NCBI GenBank assembly: GCA_900755035.1
Contig: CAAEEZ010000014.1
Span: 16,863 to 80,862, forward strand
Reading direction: 5' to 3'
Length of the DNA stretch: 64,000 bases
DNA from: Clostridia bacterium
GTDB taxonomy: Bacteria > Bacillota > Clostridia > Christensenellales > CAAEEZ01
Every line of letters starts with the position of its first letter. Position 1 is the stretch's first letter. Shown here piece after piece: positions 1,918 to 58,943 of the stretch. Both the position numbers and the translations under genes were made by a program. The notes under the pieces were generated by a model. That model was not told where the DNA came from, searched no databases, and saw only the letters and a list, made by a program, of their open reading frames with translations.

Positions 1918-1949
1918 ATCGCACTACAAATTGTGGTGCGATTTTTTTT
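1918..1949 (+). terminator. Rho-independent terminator after the 916..1821 gene
   Basis: ATCGCAC ... GTGCGAT stem followed by a T8 run. Confidence 0.5.
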
Positions 1950-2025: not shown

Positions 2026-2054
2026 TTGACTTATTCGTTTTTGTAAATTAAAAT
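2026..2054 (+). promoter_or_regulatory. Sigma-A type promoter of the giant gene
   Basis: TTGACT (2026..2031), a 17-nt spacer, then TAAAAT (2049..2054). The RBS GAGAGG lies 6-7 nt upstream of ATG 2108. Confidence 0.5.
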
Positions 2055-2107: not shown

Positions 2108-2185
2108 ATGAGAAAGTTGTTTAGTTGGAAAAAACTCGTTTTGGTTGCAGTATGCATCGCAATGGTTTTCACCTTCGTTGCATGT
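2108..2185 (+). other. Sec/SPase II lipoprotein signal peptide with lipobox F-V-A-C (Cys26)
   Basis: In MRKLFSWKKLVLVAVCIAMVFTFVAC|GEKT there is a basic n-region, a hydrophobic h-region, and a lipobox ending at Cys26 (2183..2185). Confidence 0.75.
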
Positions 2186-5100
2186 GGCGAAAAAACGAAC
2201 GTCGGCGGTAACGTCGTAGACAATCCTACTTTTAACCAAGAGTTCGGTCAATTACAAAGCGACCCTACTTCTGCGTTAAGTAAAGTGGCAGCGGCGCTGT
2301 TTACTGAAAGGGAAAACAAAAACAAAGTTAACCTAGGTTTTAACGGTGACCTAAAACTTAAACTTGGAAATAACGAACTTGTAGATATCAACGTGGACCT
2401 TCGTCTAAGCGTTGATAGAAAAGATGCAAGTGGTTCGAAGTTTAGTTTGGTAATAAACCGTAAAGGAAAAGATGGTGTTCAAAACCCGAAGATGCTACTT
2501 GGGGCGTACTTCGACGGGGTTGAATTGAAGGTGGACGCTCGTGGTACAAACGGGCATTTTTACGTTGTTGACACCGATATTATTTATCTTGTAAATCTTA
2601 TCGCGTCGGCTATAAATCAAACGCCGATAGAGGATACGTTGCAAGACGTAAGTAAGTACATAAAATCTTTGTTCCCTGTTCTTGGCGCAAGTATGGTAAA
2701 AGCAGGGGCAATGGACGTGTATGAGAAGTACGTTGCCGAGACGAATTCCTCGCAAATTACTTCGACCATCTACTTGAAGAAAACGATTATGTACGTAAAC
2801 AAGTTCCTAAGCGGTAACGGCGATATTAAAGGCGACTTGTACGAAACTATCGTTGGAATGGTTGGCGCAGACAAAATAAACCAAATCATCACGACGCTTA
2901 ACAAAGTTGCTAAATTCGTGCCTGACAACGCAACTATAAATATAGGTCTTGGCGTTATTGGCGCAAACGATAATTACAACCTAGTAAACGGCTCGTTCAA
3001 AGTTGGTTTTTCTAGCTTAGAGGCAGGCGTAACTGCGGTAGAACTAAGTATGGACGACCAAGCCGATTACGTTAAAAAACCTACCGATCCTCCTAGCGAA
3101 GAGGAAATTGACCGTGCAAAACTAGGTGCGGTTGCTTTTGACGTTGGTCTTGACGTAAGAATTACGAAAGGTAAAGTTTCTTTTGCAGATATCGACAAAG
3201 CACTTGGCGGAATACTAAACGGCTTTGTTCAAGGACTAGACCAAGATATTGATTTTAGCAAAAACTATATAGAAGTACCGGAAAGCGTTGGTACGGCTTT
3301 GCGTATTTCTTTTGCATTCCAACTAGATATAAAAGATAACAACAAAACAAACATTCTCGCAGAAATATATTTTGATAGCAACGGTAACGAAAAGAACGAT
3401 GACGGTAAGTCTTTGTTGCAAATTTATTATGTAGGTAAAGACCAAGCCTTCTATATCGATTTATCAGGATTTGGTAAGGCAAGCACTCTACCTAATAAAT
3501 TAAAGATTACAAAAGACTTAAACGGTAATTCTATTAACCTAACTCAAATGTTCTCGGATTTTATCCAAAAGATGATTACAGAGAGCGGTAAACTTGATTT
3601 CTCAACCGTAATTTCTATGGTAGCGGACGTATTTGGCAAGGATAAAGCCCCTGTAACCGAGGAGCAAGTTCAAACAATTAACCAAAAAATGCTTAACGAA
3701 TACGCTATTCCTACCGTAACTAACGAGCAAGGCGGAACTTCAATCGACGTAATGGCTATCGTTAAAATAATTTTGAAAGAATTACAATGGGACTACAACG
3801 ATAACGGCTCTTTCTACGGCTTCTCAGTAGAGATTTCGGCAAAAATGTTTAGGGAAATATTTGCCCAAATGGGTATGGATATTTCTCTATTAAAAGGTGC
3901 GTCGCTAGGTATTCACGTTACGCCGGATAAAGGTTTGGGAATTGAACTTGACGTAACTATAAACGCTGAAACTTACAAGGCTAACGGAGCAGACGAAGAT
4001 ATTGCAAACGATTTCCCTACTATGAACTTAGGGCTTGAAGTTTATATCGATTTATTTAAGGCGTTTGACGAAAGCAGGTTGCCTGCAGATAGACTAGACA
4101 ATAATTGGCAAACTCTTGAATTAAAATCAAAGGTTGATGAAAATGGCAAACTAGATATACTAAATTCTTTGCTTGCATCGTTATCGGGTAAAAAGGTATA
4201 TCTAAGTGCTGCTGCTCAATTTGATTTGCACGTAGACCAAAGTAACGGTGAAATCAACGTTGGCTCGTCGCTAAATAGTTCGATAGGTGGAGCGCTTGGC
4301 GCTGCTCTTGCCGACCTACAATTAAAGACGGGTGCAATAGACGTAACTTATACGCTAAAACTTGTTGCAAACGTAGATCTTGGCTCGTTAGTGAATATAA
4401 ATACCACCGAAGACGTAATGACGATAATCAAAAAAGTCCTTGGTGGCGACCAAGAATTAAGCATTACTTTAACTGCTAACTACGGACCGTACGGCGGACA
4501 AAAAGACGAAGAGATTTTGGCAATGCTACTAAGCAAGGGAGCATTGTATTTTGACGCCGAAAATATCGGTATTCCTAAAACTAAGATAGAACTTGATTCG
4601 TTATTCGAGGCAATCGACGGCTTATTGAAGAAACCGGAGAAAAACGATACTCCGTCTACTTCTGAGGCGACCGCAAGCGACCCTAACGCAACGATTAAAA
4701 CCGTGATTGCAATTCTTTCTAACGTAGACGTTATTAAAGTTATGGAGGGTGAAATTGCAATCGCTCTAAACAGCGCATTCCTAAACGTTTTAATCCCTAT
4801 GTTCGTAGGTGGTGGCTCTACGGGTCAAGCAGGTGATACCACGACGGGTACTATCGACCTAACGATGTCCAAAATTGAACTTGGTATCGACTTTAACAGC
4901 GATATTTTCAACAAGGATAAGGACTTTGAAAGCGTATTTAACAAAATGACTATCTATCTGGATTTGGCTACCGATCTAAGTGGAACGCAAGTTAACTTAG
5001 GCGTTAGAATTGGTGGAATAAATCTAGGTATCGTAGATACTAACGTAGATGAAGATTTGAAGGTAAGAAAAGCCTTCTTCCAAAATAGAAACGAGGACGA

Positions 5101-8100
5101 ATTTACTAATCCGTTAGAGAATAGTTTGTTAAACTTCGGTTTGACAGGTACGTTTAGATTAACGGGAGATGGCGAATTTACGTTTAATAATAAACCGCTT
5201 AATGGCGAAATAGGCGAGTTGTTGTCTACTTTGGCATTAATCATAGGTATGGATAACTTAAATGCAGTTATCAATTTGAATTTTGCTGCAGCTATTGACC
5301 TATCTAACTTTGAAAGCAATAATACTCAAATAGCTTTGACGCTAACTAATGCTAGCAATGATTTAATAGTAGGAGTTTACGTATACGATAAGTACGTGTA
5401 CGTAAATATTCCCGGACTGATTAAACCTTTCAGGCTTGAATTCGACGTAGTAAGTCTAATTTACGATTTAATTCAAGGCAATATTAAGTTGCCTGGAAAA
5501 GGCGAGGGACAAAACCCTGGTGGCGCAGTTGCGACTGCTGAAGGAGACGTTACTCAAGCAGAAGTACTTCGTTCTCTAATAAGTGTATCTACAAAAACTG
5601 CTAACGTAACTTTATCTTCTAATATGATTAAAGGTTTAGTATCGGCTCTTGTTGGTAGTATGACCAAAGGCGACGAAACGAATCCTCCTAAGATTGACCC
5701 ACAACTTGGCGACGAAATTATATCGCTAGTACAAACGTTGCCGTTTGACATTATGTTCATTGGTAGCGTATCGCACGAGTACGACGGCGAAGGCGCTGAT
5801 ACTTTCCTAGATAACTTGGTAGTTGACCTAAATATCTACGTAGGCGAGAAACTGGTAGAAGCGTACGAGCGTGGCGATGATTTGTCAAAACCACAAAACG
5901 GTGTAGTAGGACTAGGAATTAAACTAGGCGATATATATATAGATTATATAGATAGTAATAGTAAATTAGATGTTATAAGAGCGGCACTAGAAGAAAATAG
6001 GTACGACGACCTAGGCAAAATAGAGTCCGTAACTAACTTTGACATCAAAAATATACTAGCAAATACCAAAGCATCGCTTGCTTTTGACGGTTACTTATCG
6101 ATAACTTCTAACGGTGTTGATATCGGCTCAGACCAAACGATAGACAATAACATCATGATAGAGTTAAAAGAAATCATGAATACGCTACCTGAATTATTGA
6201 TAAATATAGGGGCGTTGCAAGTCGGCAAAGCAGATTTAATGAAGTTGTACTTCCACTTGGCAGTATCTGCTGATATAGGCGCAATACTTGATGGAAACTA
6301 TAACGACGCTATCGAGTTGTCGCTTGGTATTTATAGAGAAAAGTTTATAGATTACACTACTAGTGATAATGATAAACTCCTAAGCGTAGTGGTACTTTCC
6401 GGTAAAAATAGCGGAACGAAGGGCGTAACGTTATACGTGGACGCAAAAGGTCTTGCCGCAGAAGGTACTAATAACGATATTTTAAGTGGAAAGATTAAGC
6501 TTGAAAATATCGATCTAAATAGTTTGTTTGGAAGCTTGGGTATTCAAGAAACTGCAAGCGCAACCGCTGACGACTTTAATACCACGATGGTAAAAATGAA
6601 CGGCGTTATAGGTATAATAAACAGTGCATTACAAGCTATTTCTATAAGTAATAGTGGCTTGACCGTAAATCTTGGTGAAAAACTAATCGGTGTTATCGTA
6701 AATTTAATTACGAAAAACGACGGTTCGGTAAATGCAGGCGCATTGCCACTTACGGCAGGGGATATTAGGCTTGTTCTAAAACAATATGAAGAACAAGGTA
6801 TTACGTACGAGCCTGGATTACATGCCAAACTTGGCTTTAAGAATAAGGACGGTGGAGATACTGCGATTGCACTTGGTATCGGTCTATACAACTTGAATAT
6901 CGCATTTGCAAAAATGTCAGGTGCGTTCTTGCATGAAGATACTTTCGATACTTCTGAATACGTTTCTTTGCAAGAATTAAAACAAGTATCCGTATCGCTT
7001 GATTTAGGTTTGGACGTTGATATGAAAGAAGGCGTACATAACCTTAACCTATTAAATAAATACGGTAAGTTTATTGGCTCGCTTCAAAGCGTACTTGCAT
7101 TAACCGAAGAAGGCGGAAAGATCGTTATTGACCAAGGTGGCGCGGCTAAGGACTTGCACCTAAACGTATTGGTTCAAGGACAAATTGGCATTGCCGACGT
7201 AAATGCTACTGAGGTAAAACTACTTGTAACTAGCCATCCAACGCAAAAAGATAGATTAGACAAAACAAACGGTAAAGTTTTGGTTGCTATCTATTTGTAT
7301 AAAGATGAAATTTACGTTCAAAGCGATATATTAAATATAACCAACTTCAAAATCCCTAGTCTTGGTATCAGCCAATATATCAGCGACACCATAGGTGATT
7401 TGTTAAGTGGTGCAGGTGCTCAAGCTGCGGCGTTTGCTACGGCTAGCGAAGGACTTGATTTCTTAATCGGCGACAGAATGGCTGAAATAACCATAAGCAA
7501 AGTATTCTTGTCGACTTTGATTAAATACTTAGTACCTGCTGAAAGCGCAGACCTTGTAGACGCTATAATTAACAACTTGTTCCAAGGTTTGAAATTAGAT
7601 ATAAATCTAAGAACTATGTCGGCTTCGATTAACTTAGATGCAATTCTAAACGAAAAACCTGATAGCACGGGTGGACTAATTAACGCTACCTTAGCAATGC
7701 AAGGACTAGAAATTAGCGTATTTGAAAAGAATTTTATAAGCGAAGCAGATAAACAAACGTTTGCTAATTGTACTGAGGCAAAAACCAATGCATTTATTGA
7801 ATTTGGCGCAAGCGCAAGTATTAAGAGAGAAAAGATTACGGAGGATAAACAATTAACTCCGGATAATATCTTTGGACAATTAGCCGGCGTAGTGGACAAT
7901 TTGGATATGTTAGACCCTAATATCAGAGGTACTATCAATAGTATATTAAGGTCATTATATATCAATATTATGAGTGCTAAGGATGGTCAAGGTGTTCCTA
8001 CTGATGATGGTATGTATGTAAAATTAAACGTACTTGTACAAGTAAACCTTGATTGGAATAGTTGGCAATCGCTTGACCTAAGTAAATCTTCGTTTAGATT

Positions 8101-11100
8101 GTTACTTACCGATACGGGCAACAATCCTGTATTGGACGTATATCTAATAGGTTCTAACGATACTATGTATATTGACGCTCCTTTACTTGGTACTAACACC
8201 AAACTAGCGTTAAATGGTATCAACCTAATCGAACTTTACGAGCAAAGCAAAAACCCGGACGGCGGCGAAACCGTAAGTGAACTATCTACGGCAACTGCCG
8301 GCGTTGATATGCAAAAAATACTAGGAATAATCGACGGTGTTATCGGCAAAATCGAATTTGCCGATGGCGGAATGAGCGTAGGATTCGCTCCTAAGGCGCT
8401 AGTTGCTATTGCAGGCGCGTTAGGTCTTGTTCCTAGCCTAGATAGTGGACTTGTAGACGCAGTTGGTTCACTTGTTGAAACGTTACCTAATACTAGTGAA
8501 GGCAGTGGAATTTATATTGATTACGCAAAAGAAGTAAATAATAAAACTTCACCGGTGGTTGGATTAAGATACGGTTTAGACGGCGTTGGTATGATCGACA
8601 TCAATCTAAATCACTATGCTCTTGGTGCAGTTAATGATTTTGCTAGTGTGGACGTTACTACGTTGCCGTTTAAGGATAAAGACGGCCTTGCAAAAATGAG
8701 AGATTTTGCTAAGTACGATGGTGAGTACAGCAATTTGTCTAAACTACAAAATATTCAACTTGATATTAAAGGCGAGTTAAAGGCAGGACTTGAAAGCAAT
8801 AAAACGAATCCTATGGATTTAAGTAGTATGGTTCAAGGCGTGCTAGGTTCGATATTATCGCTTGCTCCACTTCAAGAAATAGGTGCTAAGATTTATTCGG
8901 ACGTAAAAGGCACGGACGTACTAAATTTCAGAGTTCAAGCAAACCTAGATATTGCTCATATCGTTGAAAATCTACAACTTGGCTTGACTGTTTACAAGAA
9001 AAATTCTACTAGCGAAGCCCTAATTGAAGTGTTCTACGATAAAGGTTCGTTATATGTAAACGCTCCTGATTATCTAGGCGAAAAAGCATTGAAGATTGCT
9101 AATTTGCTAGAACTATTTAGTGGCAACGGCGGTGCTTCTAGTACTGCTACGGGCGAGGGCGAAACCTTACCTAGCGAAACAATTAAGCAAGCGGCTGCAC
9201 TTAACGTTATTTTTGGTAAAGAGTTCGTTGGCGTGCACGTAACTAGCGGTATCTTTGCAATTTTAGTACAGTTATTGCAAGGAATGGATATCAACCTAAC
9301 CGAAGATATGTTTGCAAGCCTTGAAAATCAATTCGATATAGGTATCGAAATTGGTTCTACTAACGTAGACGAACATCTAAGCCTACCAGAGTTGTATGCT
9401 AGCCTATCTATTAAATTCGGCCCGGTAATGCTTGGCTTAAAGGCAAGCGAGCCAAGAGTTTCAATCGGTTCTAAGGAAAGCATAGTTCCTCAAAGAATTA
9501 TAGATAATTCGGCGCATTTCTCAGAAGTAACGTTCAGAGTTCAAGCAGAAGGTAGATTAGGTATAAGCGCAGATAAGACTATATTAGACTTAAATGCGTT
9601 GCTAAAAGAATTTGGCGTAAACGAAACGCTAGACTTTGGCGTTGATATCGCAAATCCTAACGACCCTAACGGTAAACCTATCAATCTACACTTAGGACTA
9701 GAATTAGACGCTGAAATTTGTCTTGGCGATATTAGTAAGTGTAATATCGCTTTAAGGGTAAACGCTTACAAAGACGAATATTCGTTTAGCGCTACTAACC
9801 CTAGCGAGCAAAAGAAAATAGGCGAAGTACTTGCATTGTATATGCACAAAAACAGCCTATATCTAGACTTAAAGAACAATATTATTGAGCTAACCGAAGT
9901 ACATATCAATACTGAGGCGCTAACGGGAATTATCGACGCTATTAAGGGCGCTATTTCCGGCGAGCAAACGACTGCTCCTGGTCAAAGTGGCGCAGTATCA
10001 ACGGCAGAGGCTACTGCTAACGATACGGCCAAAGAGCAACTAATATTATCTAACCTAATTCAACTTAACTTCAACGGCGTTGGCGCTGCCGACGGCGAAG
10101 GAGTATTTAGCGATTTGGGTAGCATCACTGCTGAAATTGGTGGTGTTGTAATCCAAAAAGTGCTTGAAATGCTTGGTCTAAATCACCTTGCAGGCGCAGG
10201 ACTTGCAGCCGTTATCAAAATTGATACCCCTACCGAAGGAAATAGCAATTTTGGTATTGGCATAAACGTAGTAACCGGTGATAACAGCACGTTGATAAAT
10301 AATCTAGGCTTGTACGTATGGCTCGGAAATATCAAAGTTGTTAAACAAAGCGAAAATACCGAAGAAAGTAGAAAGGCAAGTTTGTTGCCTCCTGCGGAGC
10401 TTGTTCAAAATGCATTTGAATTAAGCGATTTATACAAACAATTTATAAGCGTAGATATTACGGCAAGCTTGTCTATGATGACTTCTACCGTAGAGCCGCC
10501 TACCGATACGGACGAAAACGCAGGTGATAATAGCTTGATTATGAAGAATTTAATTACGGAATTCTTCAAAGGTTTCGTTCCTTGGATGCCGGACTTCGTG
10601 GCTCAGCTAGAAATCATAGGCAAGGAAAACGGTATGACGTACGAAGACTTTATGTCGTCGCACGCAATTAGGTTGCAAGCAAACGTAAACCTTGGAATGC
10701 TTATCAACAACAAAACTTGTACCATATGTAAGAAGGACTTTAATAGTTCGGATGCTATCTACCAAGCGAAGAAAGTTTGTCCATATTGCGGGGCAAGTAA
10801 CGAGCAAATAGAGGATAAAGGTTTCTACCTAGACGATATCGACTTAGGTATCGAAATTTTGAGAAACACCAAAGTTGAACTTGCTACCGTAAGCGAAACG
10901 CTACTTGGCTTGTATATTAGAAATAGCCAAATTGCTTTCTACGGCGAGCCGTTTGGACTAAACAACTTCGTTATCGAAAGAGATGCAGTTGAAAGCATTG
11001 CAAATACTATTAAGTATATTATCGGTCAAGGCACTTCGTCAGGCGCTTCTAACGGCGCATTATCTACGGCAGGCGAAAGCGGTGGTGAAACTAGTGGCGC

Positions 11101-14100
11101 AAGCGTGGATATCGTAGGACTAATAGGTAAACTTGTAAGACAAATTACTATATCTATGTATGCAGTAAGGGTAGCTGTAAGTGAAAACTTATTGTCGTAC
11201 ATTCCTGAACTAATGGAAAGCCTTGGCGTACAAGGATTCCCAGAGTTTGGATATCCGTCGCTAAACGAAAACAACTATATTCAAATAGGTTTAATACAAA
11301 ACGAGAAGGTAGACTTGTCGCTTCTATTAAATCTTGATATGTTTGGTCTAAATACTCAAATTGCAATCGAGGACGTAGGTCTTGGACTTGGCTCGAAGAA
11401 AGATATCGAGATGCCAAAAGATTTCTACGACGCTGAAAATAAAAAATTTATCGTAAGCAATTTGGATAAATTAGACAGTAGCAACAGCATACTAAACGTA
11501 AACGTAGAGGCTGAATTAAGATTAGATATCAACGAAGCAGATACCAACTTGTCAGCGTTACTTGGTGGTTTACTTGGCGATTTGAAAGTAGGCTACAAGA
11601 ACGATAAGACCATAACTAAGGACTTCTTATTAAGAATTAACGCACAAATAGATATTGCTGATTATTCGTTGGTACTTGGCGTGGAGATTATCGAGCAATT
11701 TGTAGATGGCGTAACTGCTCCTGTTACGGTGCTTGGTATTTATTATGATAGCGTAGATAGTACTGCGTACGTAAAATCTACAATATTGCCAAACATGAAG
11801 ATAACCGGTTTGGAACTAGATGTGCTTCTTGGTAAACTAATGGGACAATCGGCAGCCGAAGCTACGGCTAATGGTGCAAGTGCTATACGTCCTATTATAA
11901 ATCCGGACGCAATTAAAGAAAATTCTGATAGTCCTTCGGTAAAAGTAACACTTGCAATGCAACAATACTTTGCAGTGGCAATTTCCGGCGAGTTAATTAG
12001 CCAAATTATCAACGGTATAGACCAAATTAACTCTGTACCGGTACTTCCTGATTTTGAAGTAGCGTTAAGATTTGGTAAGAGCACTCCTGATTCTCCATTT
12101 GCAATAACTTTGCAAGTAGGGCTTGGTGAAAATAATCTAAACAACGAAAAGAAGTTCTTAATAGATTTAACTGCTAGCTTGTATCTTGGCCCTGTAAAAT
12201 ACGACCAAGAAAACAATAAGATGAGCGGTGGTACTTACGTAAACTTCTTAACTAAGGACGAGGCAACAAGTACGGATAATCAAATTATCACTAGCGAGAT
12301 GAGAGAATATCCAACGCTACTAAATATTGCGTTTGACGCTAACGGCGATATTAAGCCGGAGGTAATTGCTGAAACGGTAGAATTAGGTATCACTATGTTC
12401 TTGAACCTAGGCCACGAGCAAGGAAACTATAATTTCAGCAGTTTGTTAGCAGGTATCTTTGGTGAAAACGTAGAATTCGTTGCTATGGTTGAAGCATTAG
12501 AAAAACGTCAAACGAATCTTGCTATCGACGTAAAGGCGCAAATCAACGTAAATAACCTAATAATGAACGCATTGTCGGGTGTTGGCGTTAGTTTGAAGGG
12601 TACTAACTTGCAACTTACCATAAGCAAACAAGAATGGGATGATAAGAATAAGCAATATACTCCATTAGAAAAGGTAATGCAACTTACCTTCAAAGGTGGC
12701 GCAGGTAAGGACGGCAACGACGCATTATATCTAAAACTGTACGGTGCAGGTAGAAAAGATCCTAACGACGTAAACAGCACCGAGGATATCGCAATCGTTG
12801 TAGATACCATAAATATTATGGATATAGTAAACAAGGCAACAGGTCAAAGCACGGCAATATCTACTGCTAGCCCAACCACAGCCCTTGCAGACTTTATAAA
12901 TACTATAATCAAAGACGTTCATATTCGTGAGGTAGAGAGCGAAACAGGTGAAAAGTATATTAGAGCCGACGTAAACTTCGCTGCACATATCTTTGATGAC
13001 GTAATTAAACTTGTTACGTTGCTTACGTCGGATACGGCGAACGCTACTACCGAGCAAATTATGAACACCATTGCAAAATTGAATTTACCGGACGTAACAA
13101 GAGGCGGATTGTACCTAGCGTTCAACCAAAGTAAAGTTGGTCTTGGCGTAGGTCTTGACGTGCAATTAAATAATTCGGTAAATATCGCGCTAGGCTTAGA
13201 AATAAACGCTCTTGGCATAGTTAAGGACGAATCCGGCTTGATAATGCCTGAGGGAAAAGTAAGCGAATACAAGTCGGTTAGCGATTTGCAAGTAAAATTA
13301 CACTTCGAGGGTTATGCCGAGATGTCGAACCATAATACCCCAGAACCTATGAGTATAGGTGGTATTATCACTACTATCCTAGGACTACTTAACGTAAACG
13401 TAGGCGACGTAGACTTCAACGTAGAAACCACGAGCACCGAAAAATACGGCTTGATTTTGGACGGATATATCGACACTAACGATTTCCAACTAGATGAAAA
13501 CGGCAAGCCAAAAACAGCAAACACTAAGATTAAATTGTCGCTAACTAAGGAAAACCTTGTAAGTCAAGGTGAAAACGGCAGTCCAAAACACTTGCTTGAT
13601 ATCTACTTGGATTTTGCTAAAAAAGGCGTATATATTGACCTAACCGGTATGAACCTACCTAAACTTGCATTAACGGGACTAGATTTAGGTCAAATGCTTG
13701 GTAATATTATTAGCCCATATCTTGGTGGCCAACAAGGAACACAAACCATAGATGCAACGGCAACTGCTGATGGCAAAACTGTAATGTCGGCTAATAAATT
13801 GTCTGCAATGTTGTACTTAACTTTGGGCGTAGACGAAACTTCGCTAAGGTTTAATGCAGACCTAATCAACGCAATACTTCAACTTGTACTTGGCTACCTA
13901 AGCGACGCTAACCCTAATAACGATATTATAAATACGCTAAAAGGTATGACGTTGCCTGATTTTGGTACGGTTGCTCTAAGTTCGTTCAAGGACGAATCTG
14001 GCGTAGACCACTTGGAAGTACGTATTTACAGGGTAGCAGGTAAAGTGGATGATAACTATCTAGCGCTAGGCGTTAAGAACGCATGGTGGAACGTAAATCC

Positions 14101-17100
14101 TACGACTAACGGTAGCGATTTGGCAGTAACGAATACTGCTGATTACGGTACTATCTACGACCTAAAAGACGGTCTTGGTTTAAGGCAATTATACGTAGAT
14201 ACGACTATTAGCCTAAAATTTGATTTCAGCGATCCTGATAAAGCAACCGAGGCTAGCTCGTTTACAAGATATATCAGCAGAATGCTTGCGTTACTTATTG
14301 ATAAGAGTACGGACGAGGCAGCAATCAATAAGTACCAAATTATGATCGTAAGCGACAACGAGGCTAAGAAAGTACTTCAATACGAATTAAGAATAAAAGG
14401 TATTTTGGATATTACAGATATCTTTGGTGGTAGCAACCTATCTATCGAACTATGGAAGATGGATTTAATTCATACCGCACCAGATGATAGAAACAACGTA
14501 ATGTTACTTGGTGCTTACCTAAGAAAAGATTCAAGCAACGGTTTACCTACCTTGTTTGTGGATCTAAATAACTTAGGTTTACCTAGAATTAAACTAGTAG
14601 GTATAGACGTACTTCTTGGTGGATTAGGTTTGTCTTCGGCAACTGCTCAAAGCAACGTAATAGGCACCGGTAATTACGACGCTGTTGCGCAAGCCGCTAA
14701 AGATTTGCAAAACAGAGTAGTGATTGAGGATAATCAAGTTAAACTTGAAATCAATCAAGGATTCTTGTATGGTATACTTAGCGCTGCGCTTCCTGATGTA
14801 TTTAAGGATGGCTATATCAATGCGGGTGCAATGAAATTGCCTCTACCTAATGTTGCAGGTGTTGAACTACTTGTAGACCTATCTAACGGACTACAAAAAT
14901 TAAATCTAAACGCATATCTTGAAAAGGAAACTAGCAATCATATAGGTATCGAAATTAGACTAAACGAACTTGATATTGCCGGTGGCGAGAAAACCTTTGC
15001 TGATAATAAGATAGTTTGGACCGAGGTTGGAGATAAATATAGCAACGTTAAAGGTGAAAACTACTTTAATACGTTTGGCGCTGTACACGTAGGTACTTCG
15101 TTCACTGCTGATATGATTAATGAACTAGTTGAGTCTATAGATCCTAATATATTGATTCAGTATAACAAGAGAAGTGACGGATATTATAGGTGGCCAGGAC
15201 TTGCCACTGGTCATTACGAGACGATGTATCAACATGCCATTACCAGTGGAAAGGGCTGGGATTACAGAAGAATGGGTCAATCCTGGAATAATATTCTACT
15301 TAGTAGAGCATCAGGGAATAAGGCACAAGCCATAAGGCTTGCTGTTGTTGCTCGTTCTGGTGCAAATAATAGCACGTATGGTGGTACTAACCCTATATGG
15401 CCAACGCAAAAATTGCAAAATGGCGAAGCGATGGTAGACGTTTATTTGGGAGGAGATGGCAATATTTATGCAGATATTGATAAAGCTGCGAGAGTTACCA
15501 ATGCCTTAGGAGGAGTTATTCCTATCATAGCAATACCAGCAGGATTAAAAATTGGAAATATGATATTTGGTGCTGAGAATTCTGCTACATACGATGATCC
15601 TAATATAAGCGCAGTAGCTCTTGGCACGTCTGGTATGGCAACTGCTGCCAAAACCCCGAATGAAGAATTTTCTAGTATTTTTGCTAACTTTGATATAGGT
15701 AGTTTCTTAAAGGGTATCGAGATAAGAATTTATACCAATACAGAGAAGAATGGTGGATATGCTCAAACGGAAATTCAAGTCAAAGTAGACCCTGTAAAAA
15801 TTAATGAGATATTTAGAGCTGTAAACTATATGTTAGCAAATGTATTTGACCCTAAACATCAAGCAGCACATTGGAATGGCGACGGAGGAATCAACGACGC
15901 AAATAAACCGGTGATGCTTGGTGATACACTAAGGATATTCATTAAAGATGAGGTAAATGCTACGCTTGGAGGACTTATTTGGAACAATACTGCGAACGCA
16001 GATACTGATATTGGAAACTTGTTGGGTTCGTTATTGCCTCTTCCTGAATTAAATTGTAATTTGAGCGAAAGTGATGGTACTCATTTAGGAATGAAACCTA
16101 CAAGCGATCAGGCTACAAAGCTCGAATACGTAAGAAGTGAGTTAACATTGACGTTAGGATATAATCCTAATGAAGTAGGCATAGTTGGAGCATTAAAGTC
16201 AATAAATGCACAGTTTGGTAATAAATATGGTTTTGGTACTCACGAAAGCGGAAATAATGACCAGGCGCTGGAAGCAGTTAATCGTAAACTTGGATGGTTA
16301 GAATTAAACATTAAAGCACATGGAAACAATGAATTGCTTGGTACAAAAGCAGTATCTACCGTTAACGGCTACAACCGAGGAGAAGACGTATTGCAAAGAT
16401 TGTCTGAACAATACATTGCATCGGGTAACGGATATCCAATCGACGGTGGAAAAGAGGGAATTACCATTACCGATCCTGTTAAGTCCGTAGAAGAGATAAG
16501 AGAAAAAGTCGTAAACGGAAAAGGACTACCTACCAAAGCGAACGTTTCTTACCTAGACGGCACTTCTACAGGTGGTGCAATCAACGGCGAAGCAGAAACC
16601 ATGGTATCTATCGTATGGGACGATTCAAGGATAGATCTTAGCCCTAACGGAAGCAAAGATAGTTACCTATACGGCTGGATACAAAACAAGATGATTGCAA
16701 AAATCAAAGTAACCGTTGACACTAAGTATGAATTAAAGAATATTGACAGCTTTGAAATGGCTATAACTAGCGAACAAAACGCAATCGCTATTGAGAAACT
16801 TGGCAGTGGCAATATAGTTAAGCCAGATGGTAGCGCAAATATTAAGATAATAATGGAGTCCTACCTAACGAAGAACTTGCCGTCAATTATCTACGTACAA
16901 CAAGGCAACGAACCACTTCCTTGGATTTACTCGACTACTGCAGTTAAACGTATTATTTACAGAGAAATTACGGCAACGGGTGTACCTGGCAAAGAATACG
17001 ATAGCGAAACTAAAGAAGGTTTGACAGTACTATGGGATAGTGAAAGAGGCGAATACGTAAACGTAGAAGAAGTTGGTTGGAGGGGCGACTGGTATATCAG

Positions 17101-18889
17101 CAAAGATAGAAAAGAGCCTTGCCAAGGTAAACTTGAATGGGATACGTCAAATCTTGCTTGGTCTGCATTGAATCCTTACCTAATCAATACTACGGTAGGT
17201 GATGGAACGGTAGGTATGAAACTTATCACAGGAAAGATGGACGACTTCGTGCTAAAAGGCATCAAGGTTGAAGTAGAAAGAACGCTAGACGACAATGCGA
17301 TTATCGACGGATTAAATAAGGTATTTGGTGCATCTTCTAAAGATATGCTAGAAATAGATATTATTGATATGCCAAACTTTATCGAGAAGTTTAAGGAAAT
17401 CAGCAATGCCGTTACGGGTAACGGAGTAACTAGTTACGAAGGCAAAGGACTGGAAATAGACTTCGATGGCGGACTAAGGCTGAATATAAATCCTGACGAA
17501 ATATCGTTTGACTTATCTAATATCAATAGTTGGATAAGTGATGGTGGTAATAAATACGGTGGTGACGTACTAATTCTACCTGTCAAGATAACTAGAACAA
17601 TCAATAACCCTGGTGATATCGACGGAAGAGAAACCAACGTATTAAACGTAGACGTAAAAGTCAAGATAAATATGCTGGAACTAGTCGAGATAAGGTTAAA
17701 GAAGATGATGCTTATCGGAGGGCAAGAGATTCCTGAAACGATACAAATCGCGCTAAATCCTTACGGCGATTTTGTAAGTCAATTAAAGAAACAATTTGCG
17801 CCAGAGCAAGGCGTAAGGTATGTAATTGAAGGCATATTTAGGTCGAGCGATGGAATGCTTGATAAGTCTAAGCACATAGAGATTACCGAGGATTCGTTCG
17901 ATATGAATAGTACCGCAAGAGTTAAGTTTGACCTATCGTCTATCTACGGCACGTATACTTACAAGGGTGGTAATTCCTTCCTAAGAGTATTTGTTGGAGA
18001 TAATGCACTAGGATATTTGCAATCTATATTGCCAATTAGCGTAAGCGGTAGAATACTTCAAGGTATGACGATAGTTAATATCGACGAAGTAAACGTACTA
18101 GACGCTAACAGCCTAAGCAATATAGGCAAAGCCTTAGAGTTACAATTGAAGTTCTTGAAAGTTGGCGCAGATATCGAAAGTGATACTAATAACGTTCAAA
18201 TTGTATGGTACGATAAAGATAAATTGATGGAAGCTGCAAAGACGGGCAAGAAAGATTTAAGAATTGATGCAATTATCGGATTTAAGCAAAATGGCGAAAC
18301 GAAATTGAACAACTACTTGAATCAAAGAGTAACGCTACTTATCAAAAACGTTAAACAAATCTATGCTATGAGCCTTGTAAGGTTTGCTGGATTCCCTATC
18401 AATAAGGGTGCAGACGGCAAGTATATGCTACCTGCTAACGTAAATACCAACGTGGGCGATTTAGTTTATAGATATCACGACGAAACGGGTAGCCACGACG
18501 TAACTATCAAAGACGTAACCTTAACGGGCGACTTCAATGCTAAGACGGCTTACTACACGATAGGATTGTTTGACTTTGCTATCAAAGTGGACGACGATAT
18601 TACAAGAGTAACCAACTTCTTTACGGTAGATGCAGAAGGCAACAAGACGGACGTAAATAGGGTATTTAGCCAGGAGGCAGACGGAACGCTTGTAGTTAAG
18701 TACTCGTTCGTAGAAAAATTACCTAGCAAGCTAGTTATGGAACTAGCCGTACCTACCTTTGACGAAAAGGGTAATATAAACGGACAAAAACTAGTTTACG
18801 TAGACGTAAATCTAACCGGAACGTCTAGCCTAAAAGAAGCAACGGTACAGTATGGAGTACATACCATTAAGGTAAAAGTTACGAAATAA
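2108..18889 (+). CDS. Giant (5,593 aa) predicted surface lipoprotein with tandem ~290-aa modules; family unknown
   Basis: A single uninterrupted ORF of 16,782 nt. Its codon and dinucleotide usage matches neighbouring genes over most of its length. It has an N-terminal lipoprotein signal, its own promoter and its own terminator. It is extremely Cys-poor and rich in Asn/Gly/Leu/Asp/Ile/Val/Thr/Ala. I see no LPXTG, SLH, cell-wall-binding repeat or C-terminal TM segment. Confidence 0.9.
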   Translation: MRKLFSWKKLVLVAVCIAMVFTFVACGEKTNVGGNVVDNPTFNQEFGQLQSDPTSALSKVAAALFTERENKNKVNLGFNGDLKLKLGNNELVDINVDLRLSVDRKDASGSKFSLVINRKGKDGVQNPKMLLGAYFDGVELKVDARGTNGHFYVVDTDIIYLVNLIASAINQTPIEDTLQDVSKYIKSLFPVLGASMVKAGAMDVYEKYVAETNSSQITSTIYLKKTIMYVNKFLSGNGDIKGDLYETIVGMVGADKINQIITTLNKVAKFVPDNATINIGLGVIGANDNYNLVNGSFKVGFSSLEAGVTAVELSMDDQADYVKKPTDPPSEEEIDRAKLGAVAFDVGLDVRITKGKVSFADIDKALGGILNGFVQGLDQDIDFSKNYIEVPESVGTALRISFAFQLDIKDNNKTNILAEIYFDSNGNEKNDDGKSLLQIYYVGKDQAFYIDLSGFGKASTLPNKLKITKDLNGNSINLTQMFSDFIQKMITESGKLDFSTVISMVADVFGKDKAPVTEEQVQTINQKMLNEYAIPTVTNEQGGTSIDVMAIVKIILKELQWDYNDNGSFYGFSVEISAKMFREIFAQMGMDISLLKGASLGIHVTPDKGLGIELDVTINAETYKANGADEDIANDFPTMNLGLEVYIDLFKAFDESRLPADRLDNNWQTLELKSKVDENGKLDILNSLLASLSGKKVYLSAAAQFDLHVDQSNGEINVGSSLNSSIGGALGAALADLQLKTGAIDVTYTLKLVANVDLGSLVNINTTEDVMTIIKKVLGGDQELSITLTANYGPYGGQKDEEILAMLLSKGALYFDAENIGIPKTKIELDSLFEAIDGLLKKPEKNDTPSTSEATASDPNATIKTVIAILSNVDVIKVMEGEIAIALNSAFLNVLIPMFVGGGSTGQAGDTTTGTIDLTMSKIELGIDFNSDIFNKDKDFESVFNKMTIYLDLATDLSGTQVNLGVRIGGINLGIVDTNVDEDLKVRKAFFQNRNEDEFTNPLENSLLNFGLTGTFRLTGDGEFTFNNKPLNGEIGELLSTLALIIGMDNLNAVINLNFAAAIDLSNFESNNTQIALTLTNASNDLIVGVYVYDKYVYVNIPGLIKPFRLEFDVVSLIYDLIQGNIKLPGKGEGQNPGGAVATAEGDVTQAEVLRSLISVSTKTANVTLSSNMIKGLVSALVGSMTKGDETNPPKIDPQLGDEIISLVQTLPFDIMFIGSVSHEYDGEGADTFLDNLVVDLNIYVGEKLVEAYERGDDLSKPQNGVVGLGIKLGDIYIDYIDSNSKLDVIRAALEENRYDDLGKIESVTNFDIKNILANTKASLAFDGYLSITSNGVDIGSDQTIDNNIMIELKEIMNTLPELLINIGALQVGKADLMKLYFHLAVSADIGAILDGNYNDAIELSLGIYREKFIDYTTSDNDKLLSVVVLSGKNSGTKGVTLYVDAKGLAAEGTNNDILSGKIKLENIDLNSLFGSLGIQETASATADDFNTTMVKMNGVIGIINSALQAISISNSGLTVNLGEKLIGVIVNLITKNDGSVNAGALPLTAGDIRLVLKQYEEQGITYEPGLHAKLGFKNKDGGDTAIALGIGLYNLNIAFAKMSGAFLHEDTFDTSEYVSLQELKQVSVSLDLGLDVDMKEGVHNLNLLNKYGKFIGSLQSVLALTEEGGKIVIDQGGAAKDLHLNVLVQGQIGIADVNATEVKLLVTSHPTQKDRLDKTNGKVLVAIYLYKDEIYVQSDILNITNFKIPSLGISQYISDTIGDLLSGAGAQAAAFATASEGLDFLIGDRMAEITISKVFLSTLIKYLVPAESADLVDAIINNLFQGLKLDINLRTMSASINLDAILNEKPDSTGGLINATLAMQGLEISVFEKNFISEADKQTFANCTEAKTNAFIEFGASASIKREKITEDKQLTPDNIFGQLAGVVDNLDMLDPNIRGTINSILRSLYINIMSAKDGQGVPTDDGMYVKLNVLVQVNLDWNSWQSLDLSKSSFRLLLTDTGNNPVLDVYLIGSNDTMYIDAPLLGTNTKLALNGINLIELYEQSKNPDGGETVSELSTATAGVDMQKILGIIDGVIGKIEFADGGMSVGFAPKALVAIAGALGLVPSLDSGLVDAVGSLVETLPNTSEGSGIYIDYAKEVNNKTSPVVGLRYGLDGVGMIDINLNHYALGAVNDFASVDVTTLPFKDKDGLAKMRDFAKYDGEYSNLSKLQNIQLDIKGELKAGLESNKTNPMDLSSMVQGVLGSILSLAPLQEIGAKIYSDVKGTDVLNFRVQANLDIAHIVENLQLGLTVYKKNSTSEALIEVFYDKGSLYVNAPDYLGEKALKIANLLELFSGNGGASSTATGEGETLPSETIKQAAALNVIFGKEFVGVHVTSGIFAILVQLLQGMDINLTEDMFASLENQFDIGIEIGSTNVDEHLSLPELYASLSIKFGPVMLGLKASEPRVSIGSKESIVPQRIIDNSAHFSEVTFRVQAEGRLGISADKTILDLNALLKEFGVNETLDFGVDIANPNDPNGKPINLHLGLELDAEICLGDISKCNIALRVNAYKDEYSFSATNPSEQKKIGEVLALYMHKNSLYLDLKNNIIELTEVHINTEALTGIIDAIKGAISGEQTTAPGQSGAVSTAEATANDTAKEQLILSNLIQLNFNGVGAADGEGVFSDLGSITAEIGGVVIQKVLEMLGLNHLAGAGLAAVIKIDTPTEGNSNFGIGINVVTGDNSTLINNLGLYVWLGNIKVVKQSENTEESRKASLLPPAELVQNAFELSDLYKQFISVDITASLSMMTSTVEPPTDTDENAGDNSLIMKNLITEFFKGFVPWMPDFVAQLEIIGKENGMTYEDFMSSHAIRLQANVNLGMLINNKTCTICKKDFNSSDAIYQAKKVCPYCGASNEQIEDKGFYLDDIDLGIEILRNTKVELATVSETLLGLYIRNSQIAFYGEPFGLNNFVIERDAVESIANTIKYIIGQGTSSGASNGALSTAGESGGETSGASVDIVGLIGKLVRQITISMYAVRVAVSENLLSYIPELMESLGVQGFPEFGYPSLNENNYIQIGLIQNEKVDLSLLLNLDMFGLNTQIAIEDVGLGLGSKKDIEMPKDFYDAENKKFIVSNLDKLDSSNSILNVNVEAELRLDINEADTNLSALLGGLLGDLKVGYKNDKTITKDFLLRINAQIDIADYSLVLGVEIIEQFVDGVTAPVTVLGIYYDSVDSTAYVKSTILPNMKITGLELDVLLGKLMGQSAAEATANGASAIRPIINPDAIKENSDSPSVKVTLAMQQYFAVAISGELISQIINGIDQINSVPVLPDFEVALRFGKSTPDSPFAITLQVGLGENNLNNEKKFLIDLTASLYLGPVKYDQENNKMSGGTYVNFLTKDEATSTDNQIITSEMREYPTLLNIAFDANGDIKPEVIAETVELGITMFLNLGHEQGNYNFSSLLAGIFGENVEFVAMVEALEKRQTNLAIDVKAQINVNNLIMNALSGVGVSLKGTNLQLTISKQEWDDKNKQYTPLEKVMQLTFKGGAGKDGNDALYLKLYGAGRKDPNDVNSTEDIAIVVDTINIMDIVNKATGQSTAISTASPTTALADFINTIIKDVHIREVESETGEKYIRADVNFAAHIFDDVIKLVTLLTSDTANATTEQIMNTIAKLNLPDVTRGGLYLAFNQSKVGLGVGLDVQLNNSVNIALGLEINALGIVKDESGLIMPEGKVSEYKSVSDLQVKLHFEGYAEMSNHNTPEPMSIGGIITTILGLLNVNVGDVDFNVETTSTEKYGLILDGYIDTNDFQLDENGKPKTANTKIKLSLTKENLVSQGENGSPKHLLDIYLDFAKKGVYIDLTGMNLPKLALTGLDLGQMLGNIISPYLGGQQGTQTIDATATADGKTVMSANKLSAMLYLTLGVDETSLRFNADLINAILQLVLGYLSDANPNNDIINTLKGMTLPDFGTVALSSFKDESGVDHLEVRIYRVAGKVDDNYLALGVKNAWWNVNPTTNGSDLAVTNTADYGTIYDLKDGLGLRQLYVDTTISLKFDFSDPDKATEASSFTRYISRMLALLIDKSTDEAAINKYQIMIVSDNEAKKVLQYELRIKGILDITDIFGGSNLSIELWKMDLIHTAPDDRNNVMLLGAYLRKDSSNGLPTLFVDLNNLGLPRIKLVGIDVLLGGLGLSSATAQSNVIGTGNYDAVAQAAKDLQNRVVIEDNQVKLEINQGFLYGILSAALPDVFKDGYINAGAMKLPLPNVAGVELLVDLSNGLQKLNLNAYLEKETSNHIGIEIRLNELDIAGGEKTFADNKIVWTEVGDKYSNVKGENYFNTFGAVHVGTSFTADMINELVESIDPNILIQYNKRSDGYYRWPGLATGHYETMYQHAITSGKGWDYRRMGQSWNNILLSRASGNKAQAIRLAVVARSGANNSTYGGTNPIWPTQKLQNGEAMVDVYLGGDGNIYADIDKAARVTNALGGVIPIIAIPAGLKIGNMIFGAENSATYDDPNISAVALGTSGMATAAKTPNEEFSSIFANFDIGSFLKGIEIRIYTNTEKNGGYAQTEIQVKVDPVKINEIFRAVNYMLANVFDPKHQAAHWNGDGGINDANKPVMLGDTLRIFIKDEVNATLGGLIWNNTANADTDIGNLLGSLLPLPELNCNLSESDGTHLGMKPTSDQATKLEYVRSELTLTLGYNPNEVGIVGALKSINAQFGNKYGFGTHESGNNDQALEAVNRKLGWLELNIKAHGNNELLGTKAVSTVNGYNRGEDVLQRLSEQYIASGNGYPIDGGKEGITITDPVKSVEEIREKVVNGKGLPTKANVSYLDGTSTGGAINGEAETMVSIVWDDSRIDLSPNGSKDSYLYGWIQNKMIAKIKVTVDTKYELKNIDSFEMAITSEQNAIAIEKLGSGNIVKPDGSANIKIIMESYLTKNLPSIIYVQQGNEPLPWIYSTTAVKRIIYREITATGVPGKEYDSETKEGLTVLWDSERGEYVNVEEVGWRGDWYISKDRKEPCQGKLEWDTSNLAWSALNPYLINTTVGDGTVGMKLITGKMDDFVLKGIKVEVERTLDDNAIIDGLNKVFGASSKDMLEIDIIDMPNFIEKFKEISNAVTGNGVTSYEGKGLEIDFDGGLRLNINPDEISFDLSNINSWISDGGNKYGGDVLILPVKITRTINNPGDIDGRETNVLNVDVKVKINMLELVEIRLKKMMLIGGQEIPETIQIALNPYGDFVSQLKKQFAPEQGVRYVIEGIFRSSDGMLDKSKHIEITEDSFDMNSTARVKFDLSSIYGTYTYKGGNSFLRVFVGDNALGYLQSILPISVSGRILQGMTIVNIDEVNVLDANSLSNIGKALELQLKFLKVGADIESDTNNVQIVWYDKDKLMEAAKTGKKDLRIDAIIGFKQNGETKLNNYLNQRVTLLIKNVKQIYAMSLVRFAGFPINKGADGKYMLPANVNTNVGDLVYRYHDETGSHDVTIKDVTLTGDFNAKTAYYTIGLFDFAIKVDDDITRVTNFFTVDAEGNKTDVNRVFSQEADGTLVVKYSFVEKLPSKLVMELAVPTFDEKGNINGQKLVYVDVNLTGTSSLKEATVQYGVHTIKVKVTK
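2540..15646 (+). repeat. Protein-level tandem array of ~13-16 diverged ~290-aa modules (no nucleotide-level repeat)
   Basis: The module-end signature recurs. Examples are ALYFDAENIGIPKTKIELDSL, TLYVDAKGL...KIKLENIDLNSL, TMYIDAPLLGTNTKLALNGINLIEL, SLYVNAPDYLGEKALKIANLLEL, GVYIDLTGMNLPKLALTGLDLGQM and TLFVDLNNLGLPRIKLVGIDVLL. Each is followed by a G/S/T/A linker with an (S/A)TA core at nt 4667, 5531, 6560, 7436, 8291, 9143, 10010, 11063, 11861, 12860, 13754, 14639 and 15638. Spacing between motifs is 266-351 aa and mostly 284-299 aa. Confidence 0.6.
10718..10789 (+). other. CxxC-X16-CxxC zinc-ribbon-like knuckle pair inserted in one module of the giant protein
   Basis: In NNKTCTICKKDFNSSDAIYQAKKVCPYCGASNEQ the cysteines are at residues 2871, 2874, 2891 and 2894. 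The host module is about 60 aa longer than the typical module. Confidence 0.55.
14700..16380 (+). other. Compositionally atypical in-frame segment of the giant gene
   Basis: My hand counts of CG dinucleotides per 60-nt printed line are mostly 0-3 here. Flanking lines of the same gene give mostly 4-6. There is also a visible shift toward GAT/AAT/GGA codons from the GAC/AAC/GGC codons that dominate elsewhere. The encoded region is Trp/Tyr/His-richer (YYRWPGLATGHYETMYQHAITSGKGWDYRRMGQSWNN). Confidence 0.5.
16450..18886 (+). other. C-terminal ~800 aa of the giant protein: probable string of beta-sandwich / Ig-like domains
   Basis: Segments recur that look like LP..V.V...DG......V.W(D)...., for example LPTKANVSYLDGTSTGG...MVSIVWDDSRIDLSPNGSKDSYLYGWI, GLTVLWDSERGEYV, KLEWDTSNLAWS and VQIVWYDKDKL. 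These resemble the Big_4-type pattern found in Firmicute surface proteins. The match is by eye only. Confidence 0.35.
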
Positions 18890-18900
18890 CGATATAATTT

Positions 18901-18930
18901 AGCCCCGATTAGTCGGGGCTTTATTATTTT
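18901..18930 (+). terminator. Rho-independent terminator of the giant gene
   Basis: AGCCCCGA-TTAG-TCGGGGCT hairpin followed by a T-rich tract, 12 nt after the stop codon. Confidence 0.8.
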
Positions 18931-56121: not shown

Positions 56122-56562
56122 ATGAAAGTTTTATTGTTACAAGACGTAAAAGGACAAGGAAAAAAAGGCGAATTAGTTGACGTAAACGACGGATACGCAA
56201 GAAACTTTTTACTAAAAAAGAAACTTGGCGTAGAGGCAACTAACGACGTTATGAATACTTATAAACAAAAGAAAGCGAGCGACGACAAACGTCGTGAAAA
56301 GGAAATAGCCGAGGCAAGAGAACTAGTTGAAAGATTTAAGACGATGGAAGTAACCGTAAAGGCTAAGTGTGGCGACGGCAAAATGTACGGAAGCATTACG
56401 GCAAAAGATATTGCGGACGCACTAACTACTTACGGTATCGAACTAGACAAGAAGAAAATCGTGCTAAAAGAGAATATAAAGGCGCTAGGCAGATACGAAC
56501 TAGAAGTGAAAGTTTACGCTAATATCAGCGGAAAATTGACGATAAATGTTGTTGCAGAGTAA
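56122..56562 (+). CDS. rplI: 50S ribosomal protein L9
   Basis: [30 protein letters not shown]... Confidence 0.95.
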
Positions 56563-58903: not shown

Positions 58904-58943
58904 GTCGAATATCGACAAAATGCGATACGACCTAATTTTTTTT
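58902..58943 (+). terminator. Rho-independent terminator
   Basis: AGGTCG..TATCG / CGATA-CGACCT composite stem followed by T8. Confidence 0.55.

Follow-up and report, generated by a model that had tools for sequence, protein, structure and literature searches.

The 64,000-nucleotide stretch of DNA analyzed here (hereafter the window; positions 16,863 to 80,862 of the forward strand of contig CAAEEZ010000014.1, GenBank assembly GCA_900755035.1, Clostridia bacterium) carries near its start a giant gene whose product of 5,593 amino acids (aa) is encoded in one uninterrupted open reading frame (ORF; 2108..18889). All coordinates refer to the window, and those of the giant gene, its parts and its flanking signals lie on the + strand. 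An initial annotation had described in this ORF a regular module of ~290 aa with a conserved end signature and a recurring (S/A)-T-A linker motif; its residue numbering is that of the ORF and is retained here. Most of the protein is indeed a tandem array of this module, and the joints between the copies carry a short motif that is kept in orthologs.

The giant gene and its surroundings

The giant gene is monocistronic and 16.8 kb long. The upstream mutarotase unit ends in a terminator-like hairpin (1918..1942; 11-bp stem, then a T run), a promoter-like site, TTGACT-17-TAAAAT, lies ahead of the giant gene (2026..2054; a consensus match only, at 10 of 12 positions), the ATG is preceded by a GAGAGG ribosome-binding site, and a second terminator-like hairpin stands directly 3′ of the stop codon (18901..18920; 8-bp stem with six GC pairs and a T-rich tail). 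The neighbors are chromosomal housekeeping genes: a TetR regulator and the mutarotase lie upstream, and downstream follow an AEC transporter, metG, tatD, rsmA, ispDF, rpoB, rpoC, metK, recD2, secA, prfB and tsaD, and after these rpsG, fusA, tuf, nusG and rplA. No protease, sortase or glycosyltransferase gene was found near the giant gene among the window ORFs scanned, which reach to about nt 55,600 (ORFs at nt 56,546-63,439 were left out), and the hidden Markov model (HMM) of the module described below matches no other window ORF.

Upstream of the giant gene, a block of metabolic genes is syntenic in three species. The shared order is Mur-ligase-like, phosphomutase, acyltransferase, GH127, HGSNAT-like, a 161-aa ORF, TetR, mutarotase and giant gene, as compared over loci L001 (1-10954), L003 (1-9151) and L004 (1-9206), in which the giant proteins are 46-99% identical; the 161-aa ORF is missing from the L003 list of ORFs of at least 120 aa. 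No functional tie of these genes to the giant gene is apparent. A phage origin of the giant gene was rejected because viral contigs hold no relative of the protein and its neighbors are housekeeping genes.

The N-terminus reads MRKLFSWKK-LVLVAVCIAMVFT-FVA-C26 and thereby shows the three elements of a lipoprotein signal, namely a basic n-region, a hydrophobic h-region and a lipobox cysteine; the signal peptide read from the sequence, MRKLFSWKKLVLVAVCIAMVFTFVAC, occupies 2108..2185 and ends at the lipobox residue Cys26. The lipobox of the orthologs is the canonical LVAC, and of 29 relatives above 3,000 aa in length, 25 have a lipobox at residues 19-40 (23 by pattern and two, with FAC, by eye). 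Among the other four, three appear truncated and have an N-terminus unlike a signal peptide, and one, P0052, has a Met start and no signal peptide. The product of the giant gene is thus a predicted secreted protein with a lipoprotein signal, and because of that signal it is probably lipid-anchored.

The module array, its age and its relatives

The array comprises 14.5 tandem copies of the module (residues 83-4510), each of ~290 aa (266-351). In a leave-one-out test, an HMM was made from 11 modules and scored on the twelfth and on 20 shuffles of that module. The claimed ~290-aa periodicity was borne out, as every one of the 12 left-out modules was recovered with an expectation value (E) between 5e-16 and 8e-4 (5.3-45.3 bits), against at most 7.4 bits for any shuffled module. 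The two weakest, modules 7 and 9 (5.5 and 5.3 bits), stand above their own shuffles (1.9 and 0.8 bits) but below that overall shuffle maximum.

The individual leave-one-out E values were 2.5e-12 for module 1 (residues 854-1141; 4667..5530), 6.2e-9 for module 2 (residues 1142-1484; 5531..6559), 3.3e-15 for module 3 (residues 1485-1776; 6560..7435), 3.1e-11 for module 4 (residues 1777-2061; 7436..8290), 5.2e-14 for module 5 (residues 2062-2345; 8291..9142) and 1.5e-6 for module 6 (residues 2346-2634; 9143..10009). The second half of the array gave 7e-4 for module 7, the longest copy (residues 2635-2985; 10010..11062), 6.8e-6 for module 8 (residues 2986-3251; 11063..11860), 7.7e-4 for module 9 (residues 3252-3584; 11861..12859), 5e-16 for module 10, the copy chosen for modeling (residues 3585-3882; 12860..13753), 2.2e-8 for module 11 (residues 3883-4177; 13754..14638) and 3.2e-6 for module 12 (residues 4178-4510; 14639..15637). 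Further modules had been suspected ahead of residue 854, and the 12-module HMM finds 2.5 copies there, all outside its training set: a C-terminal half module with the end signature HFYVVDTD... (residues 83-165; 2354..2602; HMM positions 194-275, E 8e-4), module N2 with the end signature AFYIDLSGFGK...KLKI (residues 240-470; 2825..3517; E 1.7e-8) and module N3 (residues 570-832; 3815..4603; E 1.8e-9).

The end signature proved to be conserved as described. The Tyr of its (L/I/A)Y(V/I/L)(D/N) core is at least 90% conserved over 14 copies, and the module end follows the consensus ...LxxYL..G.LYVDL...KIxLxGIDLxxLL, which is modeled as hairpin-strand-helix. The helix expected after each linker also appears, being predicted at residues 5-16 of module 10.

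Two observations concern the phasing of the unit. The protein opens with the C-terminal half of a module only, the half copy at window positions 2354-2602; and residues ~4520-4580, which follow the last linker (window 15647-15850), resemble by eye the N-terminal subdomain of a module (helix, hairpin, helix), a stretch to which the HMM gives no score. Given this N-terminal half copy and the subdomain-like stretch after the last linker, the structural unit may be phased differently from the linker-to-linker unit used here.

A separate feature of module 7 is an insertion with four cysteines, C2871-x2-C2874 ... C2891-x2-C2894 (10718..10789), found by reading the sequence. Its spacing is CxxC...(16)...CxxC, in a protein that otherwise contains 0.2% Cys, and all four residues are kept in the orthologs P0002 and P0003. 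Weak Pfam zinc-ribbon or zinc-finger matches were obtained for one member each of a 46-module alignment. In an exported protein, the insertion looks like a zinc-ribbon-like knuckle or a pair of disulfides.

We then compared the module with described families. Pfam and NCBIfam searches of the whole protein in pieces gave no match, Pfam searches of 46 individual modules gave nothing consistent, and searches of PDB sequences with the module profile gave zero matches at E up to 10. A first AlphaFold2 model of module 10, from an alignment of 14 paralogous copies, reached a predicted local distance difference test score (pLDDT) of 58; a 46-row alignment that included modules from relatives yielded a better model, with a pLDDT of 74 and a predicted template modeling score (pTM) of 0.63. 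In this model the module is a mixed alpha/beta domain of ~10 strands, mainly antiparallel and 9-13 residues long, and five to six helices. An opening helix is followed by a hairpin, two helices, three long strands and a poorly defined loop, after which come a strand, a helix, two long strands and the end signature (hairpin, short strand and terminal helix). The end signature is the best-defined part (pLDDT 87-95), and the tail of the modeled module has a pLDDT of 56. Foldseek searches with both models against PDB returned nothing significant (best E 0.14, template modeling score at most 0.3), nor did a search with the better model against the viral models of BFVD (best E 0.08); the top neighbors, all of them non-significant, are meander sheets such as porins, BamA, FadL and Osh4/ORP. 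As judged by these searches, the module is a domain family without a detectable relative in any described family, and a literature search turned up no described giant protein of Christensenellaceae and no relevant giant lipoprotein gene.

Relatives of the array do exist among unannotated proteins. A HMMER scan with the module profile (the first-round HMM, as iterative rebuilds drifted) found 97 proteins among 1.84 billion cluster representatives, 20 of which are 5,595-7,924 aa long with up to 17 matched stretches. A word-indexed homology search, by comparison, returned none of the relatives above 5,000 aa, the 99%-identical one included, so that giant proteins may systematically escape such a search. 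Nearly all long representatives are lipoproteins of 5.6-7.9 kaa (thousand aa) from uncultured Clostridia or Christensenellaceae; stand-alone or split modules were not seen among the 97, whose short members are mostly contig-end fragments. The cluster of sequences 99% identical to the giant protein has 39 members, three of them named, all as 'MAG: hypothetical protein' of Eubacteriales or Clostridia bacteria (MAG, metagenome-assembled genome). In the one-genome-per-species GTDB set, relatives occur in two MAGs, one of uncultured Clostridia from the Hadza gut (64% identity) and one of Christensenellaceae (46%), and both have the same upstream synteny as the giant gene.

The initial annotation had held the duplications to be old and selectively maintained, and had seen no repeat at the nucleotide level. 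Both points stand. Tandem Repeats Finder and a second repeat finder gave only chance matches of at most 37 nt, paralogous copies within the array are only 13-24% identical to one another, and a given module shares 37-71% identity with its positional counterparts in three other species (four-way alignment). Because positional orthologs are far more alike than paralogs and no DNA-level repeat remains, we regard the array as old and maintained copy by copy; it was assembled before these genera split, with every copy kept since.

Beyond the array lies a non-module region of 1,080 aa (residues 4514-5593; 15647..18886) that matches neither the module HMM nor any Pfam or NCBIfam model. Five (W/F)(D/Y)x(S/K) signatures recur in it (at residues 4837, 5011, 5134, 5274 and 5367), it has no self-similarity at the level of BLAST, and Pfam Big_4 Ig-like matches lie near the C-termini of more distant family members. 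The region probably represents another repeat array that has diverged further still. It also contains a hypervariable patch (residues 4800-4980; 16505..17047), whose 180 residues hold 26 of the 48 positions at which the giant protein differs from the 99%-identical P0001; this clustering is suggestive of diversifying selection or of recombination at the distal end.

The linker motif

The linkers between modules are low-complexity stretches of Gly, Ser, Thr, Ala, Glu and Gln, variable in length, after which the next module opens with an amphipathic helix. All 13 (S/A)TA sites of the initial annotation are there as written, except that the one near residue 2346 begins at 2345; the spacings given between them are right in all but two cases, which should read 298 and 295 instead of 299 and 294. 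From the start of the array, the sites read S-E-A-T-A (residues 852-856; 4661..4675), A-V-A-T-A (residues 1140-1144; 5525..5539; AFATD, AITTA and ALATA in orthologs), A-S-A-T-A (residues 1483-1487; 6554..6568), A-F-A-T-A (residues 1775-1779; 7430..7444; orthologs AYSTA, AIATA and ALATE) and E-L-S-T-A-T-A (residues 2058-2064; 8279..8299). These are followed by A-S-S-T-A (residues 2343-2347; 9134..9148), the weakest site, which orthologs do not keep, and by A-V-S-T-A-E-A-T-A (residues 2629-2637; 9992..10018). At the latter linker the EATA originally picked out at 2635 is present, but the site conserved in orthologs is AVSTA at residues 2629-2633, four residues earlier (AMSTA, ALATA and ALATT). 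The remaining sites are A-L-S-T-A (residues 2984-2988; 11057..11071), with ALST the same in all four orthologs, A-E-A-T-A (residues 3250-3254; 11855..11869), A-I-S-T-A (residues 3583-3587; 12854..12868; orthologs ALATG, ALSTA and ALSTA), D-A-T-A-T-A (residues 3882-3887; 13751..13768), S-S-A-T-A (residues 4176-4180; 14633..14647) and, in the last linker, G-M-A-T-A (residues 4509-4513; 15632..15646; AMATA in P0003).

The motif exceeds what the composition of the protein would give. Matches to (S/A)TA number 19, compared with 3.3 ± 1.8 in 2,000 residue shuffles, none of which reached 19, and 17 of the 19 fall within the 13 linkers (the other two are at residues 3218 and 5268). The longer form A-[VILMFY]-[AS]-T-A occurs five times, always in linkers, where 0.1 occurrences are expected (maximum of two in 2,000 shuffles). 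The most fitting form of the motif is A-Φ-(A/S)-T-A, with Φ a hydrophobic residue, followed by an acidic or small residue.

Orthologs retain the motif, whereas the surrounding linker sequence diverges and changes in length; the observation thereby withstands the refuting checks that the initial annotation had set. Insertions and deletions (indels) of up to 17 residues flank the motif on both sides in orthologous linkers, yet the motif persists; at linker 2986, for example, the four species read GALSTAG, GALSTAG, SALSTFG and GALSTAN. Mean pairwise identity is 0.52 over the five motif columns and 0.80 in the Thr column, compared with 0.27 in the flanking linker columns and 0.45 in the module cores. 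Taken jointly, the motif columns do not exceed random core 5-mers in conservation, as 310 of 2,000 such samples attain their mean. The motif codons vary synonymously, which places the constraint at the peptide level; a DNA-level signal behind the motif was rejected on this ground and on the absence of DNA repeats.

Across the wider family the motif changes by clade, with ALATA or ALASA, EAVTAD or EAITAD and, in the most distant group, PQNA or APxNAE as variants, and these clade-specific versions are 4- to 11-fold enriched in linker windows. A de novo motif over 324 linkers, x-A-(L/S/V/T)-(A/S/T)-(A/T/S/N)-A-(E/D), scored 7.8 bits per site, compared with 6.1 in shuffled linkers. We take the linker motif to be real, yet short and partly carried by composition.

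Possible roles of the motif and the array

The initial annotation had offered a processing site, a glycosylation site or a hinge as roles for the motif; its placement in the inter-module linkers stands, but for none of the site rules compared below does the full set of features occur at these sites. One explanation for the observed features, which we hold with about even confidence, is that the giant protein forms a lipid-anchored, segmented surface fiber in which the linkers serve as joints and the motif acts within the intact chain. Once exported by Sec and lipidated, the protein would stay tethered by its N-terminus to the cytoplasmic membrane, and a long segmented fiber with the modules as its stalk would reach through and beyond the wall; the fast-evolving C-terminal region would form the distal end and probably contact a ligand. 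Within the linkers, the motif would be a short linear element. Our first choice for its role is that Φ and Thr form a mini-strand or a pair of anchor residues that docks on the neighboring module and sets the geometry of the joint; docking as a mini-strand is favored because a buried-type hydrophobic residue plus a beta-branched Thr would fit it. A second choice is that O-glycosylation of the motif Thr shields the joint. We rank docking or joint-setting ahead of Thr O-glycosylation, followed by proteolytic processing and lastly by an effect of composition.

Several points weigh against this fiber. A surface anchor and a tandem-domain stalk, as in fibrillar adhesins, are present (the lipobox and the 14.5 modules), but the modules match no known stalk family, and at 13-24% identity they are far more diverged than the stalk repeats of known fibrillar adhesins, which are typically near-identical. 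Neither Pfam nor NCBIfam recognized an adhesive or ligand-binding domain in the protein, although its C-terminal region does hold the hypervariable patch and relatives carry Big_4 domains. The structure models cover one module, whose boundaries cut the motif in two, and at the pLDDT and pTM given above their confidence is moderate, so the geometry of the fiber is a guess. Composition by itself supplies 6.1 of the 7.8 bits that the motif scores across the family, and as the most distant clade has a different motif (PQNA or APxNAE), the motif need not play a single role throughout.

Surface proteins of giant size with many repeats are already known, and the closest counterparts are the giant tandem-repeat surface proteins of Gram-positive bacteria (Ebh, SasG/Aap and Bap-type proteins). 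Like these, the protein is very large, secreted and cell-anchored, with a tandem-domain stalk and a different, faster-evolving far end, and Ig-like domains are shared in that relatives carry Big_4. The Gram-positive proteins, however, are held by a C-terminal LPXTG or wall-binding domain rather than an N-terminal lipid; they are built of Ig-like, FIVAR or G5-E repeats rather than a 290-aa mixed alpha/beta module; and their repeats are near-identical, whereas those found here are highly diverged, invisible in DNA and joined by a motif at each joint. What is new, then, is a module without a described relative, an N-terminal lipid anchor, a conserved motif at the joints, and extreme divergence among copies that is nonetheless combined with position-by-position conservation across genera.

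Unlikely in our view, though the best of the alternatives, is that a motif-reading glycosyltransferase O-glycosylates the linker Thr, stiffening the joints and shielding them from gut proteases. No residue of the motif is better conserved than the Thr (identity 0.80), which sits within exposed, low-complexity linkers rich in Ser, Thr and Ala; clostridial cellulosome scaffoldins, moreover, have glycosylated inter-module linkers. Ser seldom substitutes for Thr at the conserved motif position, however, whereas O-glycosyltransferases usually accept both residues, and the most distant clade has Asn at the Thr position without an N-X-S/T sequon. No glycosyltransferase gene appeared among the window ORFs scanned, and we know of no such O-glycosylation motif described for Clostridia. 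In Bacteroidetes, another gut phylum, general O-glycosylation is directed by a short motif, D-(S/T)-(A/I/L/V/M/T) (PMC8550257), but in the giant protein the Thr is preceded by A or S at 13 of 13 sites and never by Asp.

We consider it improbable that the giant protein is a polyprotein in which a serine-type endopeptidase (signal-peptidase-like, rhomboid-like or wall-associated) cuts each linker at the motif, after Ala or Thr, to release ~15 different 30-kDa proteins that remain surface-associated or diffuse away. A conserved island in variable, flexible linkers is what a protease recognition site would show, and each module keeps its own identity across species, as distinct products would. In orthologs, however, about one-fifth of the aligned cells have D, E, F, T, P, R or N in place of the Ala that would occupy P1, the Thr before it being best kept; no protease gene adjoins the giant gene, which stands among housekeeping genes; no stand-alone or split modules are seen among the 97 relatives; and the lipid anchor would remain on the first fragment only.

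The specific site rules are likewise matched only in part. If the cut follows Ala, small residues occupy -3 and -1 at all 13 sites of the window, in agreement with signal peptidase I. That enzyme needs a preceding membrane-spanning h-region, however, and the motif comes after a soluble module, with its amphipathic terminal helix, and 5-17 polar residues. A sortase signal does not fit either, as the sites are internal with no Pro at -3, polar residues and a soluble module follow, and there is no C-terminal anchor. Rhomboid sites have a large hydrophobic P4, a small P1 and a hydrophobic P2′ and require a transmembrane helix at or beside the site, as for the Providencia TatA site I-A-T-A|A-F (PMC2941825); Φ-A-T-A equals P4 to P1 of this site, and Φ-(A/S)-T-A reproduces its P4 and P1. 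P1 is small at 13 of 13 sites and P4 hydrophobic at seven of 13, but P2′ is hydrophobic at one of 13 (in order D, G, D, E, V, G, A, E, G, P, G, S and K), no transmembrane segment follows any linker, and P1 is not strictly kept.

A precedent for such processing is given by the P97/P102 adhesins of Mycoplasma hyopneumoniae, in which cuts at S/T-X-F|X-D/E are made in disordered regions and the fragments stay on the cell (PMC3322551). These too are large proteins of the cell surface, from a lineage that is wall-poor or Firmicutes-related, with a short linear motif recurring in disordered inter-domain regions. Their motif is a different one, however, they measure 1-2 kaa and are not regular module arrays, and their cleavage was shown by mass spectrometry. 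We do not think that the giant protein is cut at the motif into 15 pieces. Less probable again is a polyprotein of an undescribed kind, in which one lipoprotein precursor, cut at the A-Φ-(A/S)-T-A joints, would yield ~15 non-identical, individually conserved 30-kDa subunits that join in gene order to build a hetero-oligomeric surface structure of a gut Clostridia lineage; if true, processing at the joints would make this an unusual bacterial polyprotein.

One may also postulate, with quite low probability, that the motif is simply the look of an Ala/Ser/Thr-rich hinge, the linkers being plain spacers in which nothing reads it. The score of shuffled linkers given above points this way, as do sites that are weak or not conserved, such as linker 2346, and the variation of the motif between clades. 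But the motif columns are about twice as conserved as their neighbors, with the Thr column also above the module core (0.80 versus 0.45), and the excess of A-Φ-(A/S)-T-A is large (five occurrences versus 0.1 expected); a conserved hydrophobic residue in a polar linker is not an effect of composition, and at linker 2986 ALST is the same in four species despite adjoining indels of up to 17 residues.

The least probable alternative, which we regard as remote, is a conduit for lipid or other hydrophobic cargo, of the AsmA/TamB/YhdP or VPS13-like type, in which the strands of successive modules join into a continuous groove and the linkers are disordered loops: repeating beta-groove proteins do have regular disordered loops between units, TamB, YhdP and AsmA are likewise very long with long antiparallel amphipathic strands, the module 10 model consists mainly of antiparallel strands of 9-13 residues, and its weak, non-significant Foldseek neighbors are meander sheets and lipid binders (Osh4/ORP, FadL, BamA and porins), but there is no Pfam AsmA, TamB or DUF490 match at E up to 10, homology to AsmA, TamB and YhdP was rejected with hhalign (46-row module profile versus the E. 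coli proteins, probability <0.2%), no TamB or Lpt structure is among the matches listed (Foldseek top 50), each unit has five helices, a lipobox takes the place of the N-terminal transmembrane helix, and a Clostridia host presumably has another envelope, with no outer membrane to bridge.

Whichever role applies, the analysis defines a new domain family with exact module and linker boundaries, and a short motif that offers a handle for mutation, for proteomic searches and for finding the enzyme or surface that reads it. It also addresses an annotation gap, as 16.8 kb of the genome of an uncultured gut Clostridia lineage near Christensenellaceae is filled by a gene whose named relatives are only called 'hypothetical protein'. 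Conservation copy by copy across genera, costly size and a strain-variable distal patch jointly make the giant protein a good candidate for the main contact with the host, food particles or other microbes.

Two minor observations concern other genes of the window. Directly downstream of the TatD-family nuclease gene, and overlapping it by one base, lies the gene of its known partner, a TatD-associated radical SAM protein (TIGR04038 / TIGR04100; window 23576-24939). The match of the prfB ORF (window 44500-45381) to the release factor 2 model is confined to positions 65-353, and upstream of this ORF lies a CTTTGAC site (window 44352-44358) at which the frames fit a classical programmed +1 frameshift; from this frameshift site it follows that the organism reads TGA as stop.

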